Source: a virus (taxonomy: Duplodnaviria; Heunggongvirae; Uroviricota; Caudoviricetes). Taken from it: a DNA stretch of 9,488 bases. Below are positions 4,296 through 5,591 of the stretch, in pieces. Position numbers and translations under genes: made by a program. The stretch lies in IMG/VR virus record IMGVR_UViG_2778261027_000012; one strand, given 5' to 3'. Below the pieces are notes generated by a model. The model searched no databases. It was not told the origin of the DNA and was given only the letters and a program-made list of their open reading frames with translations. Every line of letters begins with the position of its first letter. The stretch's first letter is position 1.

Positions 4296-4521
4296 CGCGA
4301 GTGCGTGTAACTTTTGATGTCATTCCCGTAGAAACACCGGACAAATTTTCGCTGACAGGTCATGCAGAAGGTATAAATCTGCAGATTATGGACAATTACG
4401 GATATCCGGCAAGAGCCGGAAAAAGCATGCCGCCTCTAATTCTCAGTGGAAGATGGACTTGATTATACTCATTGCATTGTCAGAAATAGTTATCCATTAA
4501 AGGCTGGCTATTCCAAACAGG

Positions 4522-4549
4522 ATGTTGATTACAAAAATGTAATCAACAT
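4522..4549. promoter_or_regulatory. Perfect 28-bp palindrome (12-bp arms, 4-bp spacer): candidate operator for the downstream moron gene
   Basis: ATGTTGATTACA-AAAA-TGTAATCAACAT, 165 bp upstream of the ModA-like gene start, just upstream of a consensus TATAAT (4576-4581), inside a 420-bp AT-rich non-coding leader. Confidence 0.5.
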
Positions 4550-4552
4550 GTA

Positions 4553-4581
4553 AGGTTTATACTCTTCAATATGCGTATAAT
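4553..4581 (+). promoter_or_regulatory. Candidate sigma70 promoter for the ModA-like gene (consensus -10, weak -35)
   Basis: TATAAT at 4576-4581; the best -35 at 17-bp spacing is only AGGTTT (4553-4558), suggesting activator dependence or a different -35. Several alternative AT-rich hexamers exist downstream. Confidence 0.3.
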
Positions 4582-4713
4582 TTTCCTTATTTTGTTGACT
4601 TTAAATAACAAGCTATGCACGAGGTAAAGTCGGATAAGTTTATCTGGATGTAATATATATTATTTGTAGTGTTTATAACTTTATTTCATGATAACCAATA
4701 AAAGGAGTTTTTT

Positions 4714-5472
4714 ATGAGGAACATAATGGCAGGTTTTTTAATATTCCTGTCTTCTGCTGCTTATGCTGATATCAATCTGTATGGTCCTGGTGGCCCGCAT
4801 ACAGCCTTGCTTGATGCAGCCAAACTTTATGCCGAAAAAACAGGTATTATAGTGAACGTTCATTACGGCCCACAGAACAAATGGAATGAAGATGCCAAAA
4901 AAAATGCAGATATCTTGTTTGGCGCATCAGAACAATCTGCTCTGGCTATCATTCGGGACCATAAAGACAGCTTCAGTGAAAAAGATATTCAGCCTCTTTA
5001 TCTGCGAAAAAGTATTTTACTGGTAAAGAAAGGTAATCCTAAAAATATCCGGAGTATTGACGACCTGACCAGACCTGGGATTGGCGTAATTGTTAATGAT
5101 GGTGGTGGTACCAGTAATACATCAGGCACTGGCGTCTGGGAAGATATTGCCGGACGTAAAGGGAATATAGAAACTGTCGCCGCAATCCGAAAAAATATTA
5201 TTTTATATGCGCCCAATAGCGGAACTGCACGTAAGGCTCTTGAGAATCAGCCTGGAGCAGATGTCTGGATAACCTGGGCTGACTGGGCAGCCAGTAATCC
5301 AGAAATTGGTGATGTCGTGGAAATAGCGCCAGACTACGTGATATGGCGTGATATGAACATTACAGTACGTCAGGATGCAAATGATGAAACCCGTCGATTT
5401 GCAGAATGGCTACAAACCGATGAAGCGGCGCCTGCATTCAAAAAATATGGCTGGACCAGGAAAGGCACTTGA
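4714..5472 (+). CDS. Secreted periplasmic substrate-binding protein, ModA/TupA-like type II PBP fold, orphan (no transporter partners in the window)
   Basis: Ideal SD (AAGGAG, 6-nt spacer, ATG 4714). Sec signal peptide MRNIMAGFLIFLSSAAYA with AYA|D cleavage motif. ModA-like N-terminal block (INLYGPGGPHTALLDAAKLYAEKTGIIVNV...ADILFGASEQ) and C-terminal FKKYGW (ModA ends ...FKRYGF). AT-rich codon usage unlike the flanking phage genes. Confidence 0.85.
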   Translation: MRNIMAGFLIFLSSAAYADINLYGPGGPHTALLDAAKLYAEKTGIIVNVHYGPQNKWNEDAKKNADILFGASEQSALAIIRDHKDSFSEKDIQPLYLRKSILLVKKGNPKNIRSIDDLTRPGIGVIVNDGGGTSNTSGTGVWEDIAGRKGNIETVAAIRKNIILYAPNSGTARKALENQPGADVWITWADWAASNPEIGDVVEIAPDYVIWRDMNITVRQDANDETRRFAEWLQTDEAAPAFKKYGWTRKGT

Positions 5473-5475
5473 CAT

Positions 5476-5504
5476 CCTCGTCCTTCAGGACGTGGATTCT
5501 TTTT
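5476..5504 (+). terminator. Candidate intrinsic terminator after the ModA-like gene
   Basis: Hairpin CCTCGTCC-TTCA-GGACGTGG (5476-5495, 5 bp plus 2 bp around one mismatch) followed by TTCTTTTT (5497-5504), 4 nt after the stop codon. Confidence 0.4.
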
Positions 5505-5591
5505 CCGGATGCCGCGCCAGCGGCATGTAGGGGCAGCTCACAAAACGGAAAAAATTGTACGCTAAGCCTCGCCAGGTGAACTGAATTCATT

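Follow-up and report, generated by a model that had tools for sequence, protein, structure and literature searches.

A lambda-like prophage carries, among its early genes, a free-standing gene for a predicted secreted binding protein. What is this gene, how did it come to lie there, and what might its product do? We addressed these questions in a stretch of 9,488 nt, here called the window, which represents the early part of PPompW, a defective lambda-like prophage integrated at ompW (PMC8112680).

Identity and prophage setting of paa

The open reading frame at 4714-5472 (plus strand, 252 aa) was confirmed by the ORF list and is named 'paa: AcfC family adhesin Paa' by PGAP at 100% identity. 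When the annotated paa of reference strains was compared with the window ORF, they were identical. The protein belongs to a cluster of 616 members, 100% identical and named Paa by NCBI, while phage records of PPompW label the gene 'Paa/adherence factor AdfO', and it was found in 611 of 5426 complete E. coli genomes. Judged by its sequence, the gene is the already known paa (synonym adfO; z2053 of O157 O-island 57). The preliminary description had correctly recognized a 252-aa binding-protein ORF; the novelty it implied did not hold, as the gene stands as paa/adfO in PGAP, phage records and the literature (PMC8565820, PMC5976639, PMC10562709). Considering that paa is already catalogued as a STEC/EPEC/ETEC virulence marker, its identification has no discovery value.

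Attaching-effacing and Shiga-toxigenic E. coli carry the same gene, with a CDS 100% identical in O157:H7, O26, O111 and O103. A 2.2-kb segment around paa is 100% identical across many STEC genomes (O26, O111, O103, O157), and PGAP gives the genes there the names 'paa: AcfC family adhesin Paa', 'fimbrial protein' and 'hokD'. In O157:H7 EDL933, z2053 (O-island 57 / CP-933O) has the same flanks, with a fimbrial pseudogene upstream and hokD/ckf downstream. Whereas the window copy is in an ompW-integrated PPompW-type prophage (non-O157 STEC), the EDL933 copy is in an O157 island, and the gene itself is unchanged. adfO, which is z2053 in OI-57, is always accompanied by ckf (PMC8565820). Since the paa cassette landed beside the backbone hok/sok locus, this linkage is positional rather than functional. 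The segments that make up the locus are listed here.

3824-5643, plus strand: whole variable (non-backbone) segment, between a ydaW-like DUF1627 gene of the replication module and the hok/sok locus
4020-4553, plus strand: dead PapH-like fimbrial minor-subunit gene fragment (PGAP 'fimbrial protein, frameshifted; internal stop')
4510-5532, plus strand: paa cassette, comprising a leader of ~200 bp, the CDS and 60 bp of 3' hairpins; common to the IncF plasmid copies
4714-5472, plus strand: paa (adfO) CDS, precursor of 252 aa and 27.7 kDa (ORF, PGAP name, phmmer, Foldseek)

In blastn comparisons, phage Rac aligned with window 3085-3823 and 5644-6518 only, and homology to other related phages stopped at ~3820-3827 and resumed at ~5619-5642. 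Qin aligned downstream of paa from 5794 (5794-7717) and also over the dicA/dicC immunity region (183-1348). The slot, directly upstream of hokD, is occupied by lygF and small ORFs in phage Rac and by relBE in K-12 Qin, so that the moron position in the relBE neighbourhood of Qin, as originally described, was borne out. Lying as an extra gene between backbone genes, with a distinct composition and a terminator-like hairpin, paa has the features of a moron. The backbone shared to 3823 and again from 5644 supports the earlier proposal of an AT-rich moron, that is, a horizontally acquired AT-rich cargo gene in a lambdoid prophage.

Phage genes had been described on both sides of paa; on the left, the neighbour is instead the PapH-like fimbrial pseudogene. 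This fragment has a stop at 4293-4295 and a frameshift, and both of its ends are missing. Window 4048-4512 shares 85% identity with a gene that is intact in Pap-type chaperone-usher operons, where it stands second. The fimbrial identification is based on DNA homology and PGAP, and searches of the fimbrial fragments with Pfam and NCBIfam gave nothing significant except a weak FimG match. Like paa, which it accompanies, the fragment is cargo of the variable slot. An origin of paa from a fimbrial operon was considered and rejected, given that Pap-type operons carry no paa and that no fimbrial genes adjoin the paa relatives of E. albertii, Salmonella plasmids and Raoultella. On these grounds, the fimbrial piece and paa are separate cargo remnants, joined at ~4512-4520.

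A mobile AT-rich cassette and its signals

The 1.0-kb paa cassette recurs on IncF plasmids at 86-89% DNA identity, with blastn alignments of window 4520-5532 to one plasmid locus (L012, 88.7%) and of 4510-5532 to another (L013, 85.9%). These copies, from porcine and bovine ETEC and STEC (e.g. pSTEC388_3 and pCFS3246-1), encode Paa variants of ~92% protein identity and have the same leader, TATAAT, palindrome and terminator as the window. In contrast to the prophage copy, their neighbours are not phage genes but IS elements, repA, a toxin-antitoxin pair or an STa enterotoxin gene, they have no fimbrial fragment upstream, and PGAP labels them only 'substrate-binding domain-containing protein'. 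The mobile unit is the 1.0-kb cassette common to prophages and IncF plasmids. Family members were also acquired independently by other phages (three loci), which means that different phage types captured them independently, and most members are chromosomal, in non-phage contexts and in many genera. The preliminary description had asked whether homologs are always prophage-borne; they are not, as they lie on IncF plasmids and on the chromosomes of many genera. The signals of the cassette are as follows.

4522-4549, no strand assigned: perfect palindrome ATGTTGATTACA-aaaa-TGTAATCAACAT at the 5' cassette edge (12-nt arms, 100% complementary)
4576-4581, plus strand: perfect TATAAT, candidate -10 for paa, with a weak or absent -35 (direct reading)
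4702-4707, plus strand: Shine-Dalgarno AAGGAG, 6 nt before ATG 4714 (direct reading)
4714-4767, plus strand: predicted Sec signal peptide, residues 1-18 MRNIMAGFLIFLSSAAYA, predicted cut AYA/D19 (hydropathy, charge and lipobox check)
5479-5504, plus strand: terminator-like hairpin CGTCC-TTCA-GGACG, then TGGATTCTTTTT, 7 nt past the stop (terminator scan)
5509-5526, plus strand: second GC-rich hairpin ATGCCGC-GCCA-GCGGCAT without a T-run, at the cassette end (limit 5532; direct reading)

The GC content is 0.28 in region 4463-4713 and 0.44 in paa (GC3 0.35) compared with ~0.50 in the backbone, in agreement with the AT-rich gene and leader noted before, and the lowest value of the whole window over 300 nt (0.32) is at 4501-4800. 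As for the '420-bp leader' placed at 4296-4713, about half of it is the PapH-like pseudogene, which extends to ~4512 (4553 by PGAP), and the rest stands as the plasmid-shared leader from ~4510-4520. An Rfam scan of the whole window detected nothing in 4296-4713 and only sok (5661-5810) and two tRNAs elsewhere. The palindrome, a candidate operator or recombination scar, is near-intact in pSTEC388_3 (11 of 12 nt per arm) and partly kept in pCFS3246-1. The TATAAT is conserved in three E. coli lineages, including plasmid copies, and was missed by the formal promoter scan. Of the promoter and terminator that the unit was said to own, the promoter did not stand out from chance, the sigma-70 scan giving 5 matches versus 4.6 +/- 2.1 in shuffles and none within the leader proper. 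The terminator-like element was confirmed as a stem-loop spanning 5479-5492 and followed by a T-run. RNAfold of 5473-5512 gave -12.9 kcal/mol, and the hairpin falls inside the plasmid-shared cassette, evidence at the consensus level.

In an upstream alignment of nine family loci, the GGA of the Shine-Dalgarno sequence is invariant and its first G is kept in 8 of 9. Because AAGGAG sits 6 nt before 4714, we assigned the start codon to 4714 and not to 4726, and Paa homologs align from M1. The predicted signal peptide has R2 in its n-region, a hydrophobic core at I4-A15 and AYA before D19, and the mature crystal chains of PEB3 (2hxw, 3fj7) begin at the residue aligned with Paa D19. Thus, both the ideal Shine-Dalgarno sequence and the clear Sec signal peptide of the preliminary description were upheld. 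The AF2 model has a low-confidence N-terminal helix at residues 3-15. A check of the Paa sequence found no lipobox, anchoring domain or outer-membrane signal, and the predicted mature protein has 234 aa, 25.8 kDa, a pI of 6.0 and no Cys. At the sequence level, Paa shows the periplasmic-export feature of the AcfC/PEB3/Paa family.

Fold, family and ligand pocket

Paa matched Pfam SBP_bac_11 at 5.5e-34, and phmmer aligned it over residues 11-248 with PEB3 at 1.2e-81 and with AcfC at 3.5e-81; the family profile gave 1e-111 to 1e-122. The AF2 model (pLDDT 91.4, pTM 0.84) superimposed in Foldseek on PEB3/AcfC structures with TM 0.94-0.96, rmsd of 1.3-1.8 Å and 52% identity. AcfC of Vibrio cholerae (4JB7; VC_0841) gave TM 0.96, 1.3 Å and 52% identity, and PEB3 of Campylobacter jejuni (2HXW, 3FJ7, 3FJG, 3FIR), of the same length as Paa, gave TM 0.95 and 52-53% identity. 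PEB3 and Paa also share the signal-peptide cleavage position and an identical SNTSGTGVWED loop. Profiles and model together place Paa in the AcfC/PEB3/Paa family of class II periplasmic binding proteins, and Paa, PEB3 and AcfC are taken as orthologues (PMC5976639).

In an alignment of 26 family sequences with identity down to 51%, 55 columns are invariant and cluster in GPGGPH, GASEQSA, SNTSGTGVWED and PNSG. The family motifs YGPGGPH, GASEQSA, SNTSGTGVWED, PNSG and W[IV]TWxDW are all found in the window protein, and the four invariant loops directly precede model helices 28-43, 73-81, 141-147 and 169-178. The ligands in solved relatives are small organic anions, L-phospholactate and D-aspartate. 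Adjacent to the pocket, K135 of PEB3 is replaced by T133 in Paa.

ModA, Sbp and CysP have the same class II Venus-flytrap fold and, like Paa, anion-site loops at helix N-termini, while their profile similarity to Paa is remote (12-19% identity, below every family cut-off) and Paa has no modBC or cysTWA partner. Paa scored 18.3 against a cut-off of 62.5 bits for TIGR01256 and 17.7 against 470 for NF002920, the curated modA models, and for the Sbp/CysP models NF008022, TIGR00971 and NF008106 the scores were 22.6 against 288, 21.5 against 155.5 and 19 against 308 bits. ModA structures superimposed on the Paa model with TM 0.77 and 16% identity. Membership of ModA/TupA or Sbp/CysP was ruled out by these curated thresholds and by the identity and TM comparison, and on profile and model grounds ModA is only a remote fold relative. 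The preliminary description as 'ModA/TupA-like' holds at the superfamily level only and fails as a family assignment; the Foldseek check that it proposed did return a binding-protein fold. Metal capture, which it had also suggested, is not indicated, since solved relatives hold small organic anions.

As had been described, Paa is an orphan, and the whole window encodes neither a permease nor an ATPase. The check whether homologs sit beside ABC permease or ATPase genes turned out negative: an ABC ATPase motif lies within 3 kb in only 2 of 73 species-level family loci, and BPD_transp_1 and ABC_tran are absent from the recurrent families among 203 neighbours. The Enterobacter bugandensis gene is preceded, at a distance of 690 bp, by a complete ABC operon; however, this operon comes with a separate binding protein, and the same family gene is found elsewhere without the operon. 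As such, the AcfC/PEB3/Paa family almost never adjoins an ABC transporter. A distant clade of the family is recurrently linked with ECF sigma/anti-sigma and two-component genes.

The PEB3 gene likewise stands alone, without an ABC partner. PEB3 is N-glycosylated in Campylobacter, whereas Paa lacks that system, and PEB3 is chromosomal and BumSR-regulated, whereas Paa is on a prophage or plasmid. AcfC resembles Paa in being a colonisation factor on a mobile element, the TCP pathogenicity island, without a transporter partner. In V. cholerae, ToxT controls a transcript that acfC shares with the chemoreceptor-like acfB (PMC5976639), whereas no chemoreceptor gene adjoins paa.

Possible roles of Paa

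Our best overall explanation, with a probability of about 0.9, is that paa is a moron of PPompW encoding an exported small-anion binder, for which we propose an indirect mechanism in adherence. The precursor would be exported by Sec and cut after Ala18, and the 25.8-kDa mature protein would reside mainly in the periplasm, where it would close in Venus-flytrap fashion on a small anionic metabolite. The loops GPGGPH, GASEQS, SNTSGTG and PNSG, each at the N-terminus of a helix, would hold the ligand. Candidates are a phospho-/carboxylate compound (3-phosphoglycerate, phospholactate or aspartate-like) or a sulfated group, an identity extrapolated from relatives at 52% identity. Given that Paa has no dedicated permease, it most likely passes its ligand or information to a chromosomal partner (a chemoreceptor, a sensor or a heterologous transporter); nothing in the window suggests a candidate. 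This transfer would change surface and secretion properties and, in turn, adherence and colonisation. Mutants of paa/adfO form fewer attaching-effacing lesions, adhere less to HeLa cells and have an altered secretome, and these phenotypes fit the proposed mechanism. Apparently equipped with signals of its own and placed outside the late operon, paa is probably expressed even while the defective prophage is repressed. Considering that Paa has a small-anion-binder fold with an invariant pocket and that the family is essentially never ABC-paired, the label 'adhesin' probably describes the phenotype and not the mechanism.

The adhesin reading is the historical interpretation of Paa. Surface exposure is said to have been described by Batisson in 2003, and together with the adhesin labels it makes a direct host-binding role possible. 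Paa would then partly reach the surface or the medium (e.g. by T2SS), bind sulfated glycans and mucins directly and serve in the first A/E adherence step, a role that we regard as conceivable and rather doubtful. PGAP and phage records do name the family 'adhesin', paa/adfO mutants adhere less (PMC8565820; PMC10562709), ELISA showed binding of AcfC to heparin, chondroitin sulfate and mucin (PMC5976639), and remnants of T2SS genes (PulS, GspL_C) are found near a Raoultella homolog. However, the modeled closed-pocket solute-binding fold with its invariant small-ligand site argues for a different role, as does the lack of any anchoring or outer-membrane feature. AcfC was located in the periplasm and has affinity for sulfated glycans; its effect is on mucin chemotaxis rather than on adhesion to cells, and acfC deletion left Caco-2/HT-29 adhesion unaffected (PMC5976639). 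Furthermore, the adfO mutant, reduced in HeLa adherence and secretion, also secretes other proteins differently, so that the effect may be indirect (PMC8565820), and current descriptions of PEB3 make it a transporter component that binds 3-phosphoglycerate-type metabolites.

That description of PEB3 also bears on the proposal that Paa is a detached binding component feeding a chromosomal ABC importer (of sulfate/thiosulfate, phosphate-ester or molybdate type), which would let the lysogen take up a further substrate with high affinity in the gut. Sulfate- and molybdate-binding proteins are in the same superfamily, and the Enterobacter operon provides a complete importer nearby. Nevertheless, we consider this proposal improbable: the Enterobacter operon is already furnished with a binding protein, transporter genes are rare near the family, and a partner is absent in Campylobacter, Vibrio, Francisella, Aeromonas and Enterobacterales, a pattern that fits poorly with an obligatory importer. 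Far less credible is a ModA/TupA-type binder of molybdate, tungstate or metal. hmmsearch did link Paa to ModA at 1e-4 to 1e-6, mostly through the C-terminal block, and the Foldseek TM of ~0.77 points the same way, but the curated cut-offs effectively refute it, the identity is 16% to ModA structures versus 52% to AcfC/PEB3, no modBC is nearby, and close relatives bind organic anions. Equally remote is a role as a prophage superinfection-exclusion or defence factor in the periplasm, raised in the preliminary description; the cargo slot adjoins the toxin-antitoxin locus hok/sok and different phages recurrently carry family members, yet PADLOC-DB returned 0 families at E <= 0.01, PHROG phrog_11834 is a family without assigned function, most family members are chromosomal and non-phage, and the reported phenotypes concern host colonisation and not phage resistance (PMC5976639; PMC8565820).

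Besides our preferred reading of Paa as an exported small-anion binder with an indirect effect on adherence, we tentatively raise a broader idea, in which the AcfC/PEB3 family including Paa would consist of transporter-independent periplasmic ligand sensors that are neither adhesins nor transporter parts; we think it less probable than not by some distance. The invariant pocket, the family-wide absence of ABC partners and the action of AcfC via chemotaxis are compatible with such sensors, and so is the distant clade linked with ECF sigma/anti-sigma and two-component genes. If true, the sensor would feed into chemoreceptors, two-component systems or ECF sigma systems of the chromosome, making the 'adhesin' phenotypes indirect. 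Phages and plasmids would then repeatedly donate a sensor that opens a new kind of chemical input to the host, such as phospho- or sulfo-metabolites of the gut.

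Location and make-up of the paa region

The 2.2 kb around paa are 100% identical to the chromosomes of many O26, O111 and O103 STEC, where PGAP names the gene 'paa: AcfC family adhesin Paa' and the flanks are a fimbrial pseudogene and hokD; the paa coding sequence is also 100% identical in O157:H7. Phage records use the names 'porcine attaching-effacing associated protein Paa/adherence factor AdfO' and 'phage PPompW'. Among 5426 complete E. coli genomes, paa occurred in 611, at 582 sites on chromosomes and 36 on plasmids. The gene has been reported as adfO (z2053) of O-island 57 with ckf (z2054) always alongside, and its mutant showed less adherence to HeLa cells and fewer secreted proteins (PMC8565820). 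Paa contributes to attaching-effacing lesions (PMC10562709), and the defective lambda-like prophage PPompW, integrated at ompW, is widespread among STEC and EPEC (PMC8112680). The gene and its name, the family it belongs to, crystal structures of two homologues, its position on an island or prophage and the phenotypes of its mutants were already known. The preliminary description, which presented an AT-rich moron with an orphan secreted ModA-like protein, correctly rediscovered paa/adfO, with a slightly mislabelled family and an over-extended leader.

The window corresponds to the early region of the PPompW prophage and runs in the order repressor/Cro, ydaT, replication genes, DUF1627, small ORF, fimbrial pseudogene, paa, sok/mok/hokD, rem, DUF968, rusA, Q and two tRNAs.

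Features of the window
3121-3854, ydaW-like DUF1627 gene
3851-4015, small ORF
4020-4553, fimbrial pseudogene (homology 4048-4512; stop 4293-4295, frameshift, both termini missing)
~4510/4520-5532, paa cassette proper, 86-89% identity with IncF plasmids of porcine/bovine ETEC/STEC
4522-4549, perfect palindrome, 12-nt arms, 4-nt spacer: ATGTTGATTACA aaaa TGTAATCAACAT
4702-4707, + strand, SD AAGGAG, 6 nt 5' of ATG 4714
4714-5472, + strand, paa ORF, 252 aa
5479-5492, + strand, terminator-like hairpin followed by a T-run, 7 nt past the paa stop codon
5533-5643, 111-bp stretch outside both the paa cassette and the hok/sok backbone
5592-5615, 24-nt perfect palindrome CCGATATGGGAA/TTCCCATATCGG with an EcoRI site at its centre, within 5533-5643
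5661-5963, complete hok/sok/mok type I toxin-antitoxin locus (sok 5661-5810, Rfam, 104 bits; mok ORF 5751-5963; hokD 5808-5963)
8209-8898, Q antiterminator gene
9094-9166 and 9260-9333, two tRNA genes (PGAP: Ile, Arg), downstream of Q

The tRNAs after Q occupy the position at which tRNAs precede the late region in Stx-type lambdoid phages. The window and phage Rac have only 3085-3823 and 5644-6518 in common, between which Rac has lygF and small ORFs. On the right-hand side, homology to K-12 Qin runs from 5794 on, starting only at the hokD coding sequence, and the dicA/dicC immunity region also matches at 183-1348. The positional comparison with Qin made earlier was correct, since relBE lies directly upstream of hokD there, replacing the sok region. 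Positions 3824-5643 are a variable cargo slot, which holds three separate pieces: the fimbrial fragment, the paa cassette and the 111-bp stretch. The DUF1627 ORF is intact in the window (244 aa, covering 1-153 of the 155-position Pfam model); the same gene is a normal CDS in the phage record and 'frameshifted' in the PGAP annotation of strain E2865, a flag that probably arises as an artefact of annotating against a longer reference.

The pseudogene is what is left of the interior of a PapH-like minor-subunit gene, now dead. Intact Pap-type chaperone-usher operons, one on an APEC chromosome and one on a 52-kb plasmid, carry this PapH-like gene in second place, and the homologous stretch matches it at 85% identity. 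It is the sole fimbrial gene in the prophage and accompanies paa in ~573 genomes. On plasmids, the cassette neighbours IS elements, repA, the STa gene or a toxin-antitoxin pair. The hok/sok/mok locus, which is the 'ckf' of the OI-57 literature, belongs to a phage backbone common to Rac, 933W and many Stx phages. The reported adfO-ckf co-occurrence is therefore positional, the cassette having landed beside a backbone locus shared by many phages.

Expression signals and the Paa N-terminus

The lowest GC content of the whole window (0.32) falls at 4501-4800, with 0.28 at 4463-4713, and the paa coding sequence has a GC of 0.44 (GC3 0.35) against ~0.50 in the flanks, which bears out the AT-richness first described. 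The terminator-like element held up as well, as the hairpin and T-run 3' of paa. The proposed 420-bp leader is indeed AT-rich, but about half of it is the dead fimbrial gene, because the cassette proper begins only at ~4510/4520. A separate promoter for paa is a weak claim: the consensus scan gave 5 sites versus 4.6 in shuffled sequence, none of them in the leader proper, although a perfect TATAAT at 4576-4581 is kept in diverged paa copies, with no convincing -35 found for it. The palindrome at 4522-4549 lies exactly at the 5' edge of the cassette, ~27 bp upstream of this TATAAT; 11 of 12 positions per arm are kept in one plasmid lineage, and it is degenerate or partly conserved in another. 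No known regulator site was recognised in the palindrome, which may represent either an operator or the scar of a recombination event.

The reported ideal SD and Sec signal peptide were both confirmed. The N-terminus, MRNIMAGFLIFLSSAAYA/DINLYG, has a hydrophobic core, one positive charge and an AXA cleavage motif, and no lipobox was found in it. Considering that the residue aligned with D19 of Paa is the first of the crystallised mature PEB3 chains, cleavage after A18 is supported. Public annotations differ in the start codon: PGAP places it at ATG 4714 (252 aa), and a 248-aa version that begins at the internal ATG 4726 appears in PHROG phrog_11834 and the LC5678xx phage records. The start at 4714 is favoured by homologues aligning from M1, by its spacing from the SD and by the positive charge at R2.

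Family assignment and a probable ligand pocket

Paa belongs to Pfam SBP_bac_11 (5.5e-34), and its best PDB-sequence matches, nearly full length, are C. jejuni PEB3 (1.2e-81) and V. cholerae AcfC (3.5e-81). An AlphaFold model built from a 26-sequence alignment (pLDDT 91.4) superposed on AcfC (4JB7) with a TM of 0.96, an rmsd of 1.3 Å and 52% identity, and on PEB3 with a TM of 0.95, whereas ModA gave a TM of ~0.77 and 16% identity. Paa has a binding-protein fold. As AcfC and PEB3 superpose far closer, the 'ModA-like' label names the right superfamily and the wrong family. Paa also scored far under the cut-offs of the NCBIfam ModA and sulfate-binding models, which effectively rules out a ModA function; a phage exclusion role is effectively ruled out too, no PADLOC match being found.

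In the alignment, 55 columns are invariant down to 51% identity, including the motifs GPGGPH, GASEQSA, SNTSGTGVWED, PNSG and W[IV]TWxDW. Four invariant loops directly precede the model helices 28-43, 73-81, 141-147 and 169-178, and in the model this corresponds to the helix-dipole layout known from the anion sites of sulfate-, phosphate- and molybdate-binding proteins. Of the solved relatives, PEB3 contains L-phospholactate and AcfC contains D-aspartate, and PEB3 has been described as a binder of metabolites of the 3-phosphoglycerate type. AcfC, a periplasmic protein, binds sulfated glycans and changes mucin chemotaxis but has no cell-adhesion role (PMC5976639).

An orphan family and a proposed mode of action of Paa

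In nine hand-inspected contexts (Edwardsiella, Enterobacter, Francisella, V. cholerae, Campylobacter, Aeromonas, E. albertii, Salmonella plasmids and Raoultella), the homologue stood alone in all nine, and the only ABC operons nearby were separated from it and had their own binding protein. We then looked for homologues beside ABC permease or ATPase genes in 80 loci, one genome per species. Among the 73 in which the target gene was callable, only two had an ORF with Walker A and LSGGQ motifs within 3 kb. In a Pfam scan of the two nearest ORFs per side (105 neighbours in the close clade, 98 in the distant clade), neither BPD_transp_1 nor ABC_tran was among the 25 most frequent families of either clade, which leaves room in each clade for an isolated case or two further down the ranking. 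From these three results, orphan status is a property of the AcfC/PEB3/Paa family, and the outcome named beforehand as a refutation of the preliminary description, homologues beside ABC permease or ATPase genes in most genomes, did not occur.

The homologues are not always prophage-borne, most being chromosomal, and in IMG/VR this one E. coli gene accounts for 42 of 44 hits. Diverged members occur at different positions in three other phage backgrounds: in a P2-like prophage of Aeromonas, between gpA and ogr/portal (L011, 54% identity), on an IMG/VR contig next to a lambda-type tape-measure gene (L142, 86%), and on a myovirus-like IMG/VR contig between integrase and a tail-fibre/baseplate module (L145, 67%). 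These are independent captures of the family by phages.

The E. albertii homologue (87%) is a lone chromosomal gene outside any prophage, located between two PTS (aga/sorbose-type) sugar-utilisation clusters with ~850 bp of non-coding DNA upstream. In Raoultella planticola, the homologue (79%) adjoins type 2 secretion fragments (PulS/OutS-like, GspL_C) and large unannotated gaps, which may be relevant to the reported link between AcfC/AdfO and type 2 secretion. A distant AcfC-like clade (L058-L102, <50% identity) comes from marine/environmental Proteobacteria, Bacteroidota and others. Its recurrent neighbours are ECF sigma (8), zf-HC2 anti-sigma (3), Lipoprotein_15 (8), LysR (4) and histidine kinase/response regulator genes, with no ABC transporter genes among the 25 most frequent neighbour families, which hints at a signalling role.

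Taken together, mature Paa is probably a periplasmic receptor whose ligand is a small anionic metabolite of the gut, and since it has no permease of its own, it would act through a chromosomal partner; the lower adherence and altered secretome of the mutants would then be downstream effects. A direct adhesin role of Paa is less likely, and it may coexist with that of a periplasmic receptor. It is more improbable still that Paa is a detached importer component, because the partners are missing across the family. For this transporter-less binding-protein family, 'adhesin' is perhaps a misnomer, a real issue that predates the present analysis.
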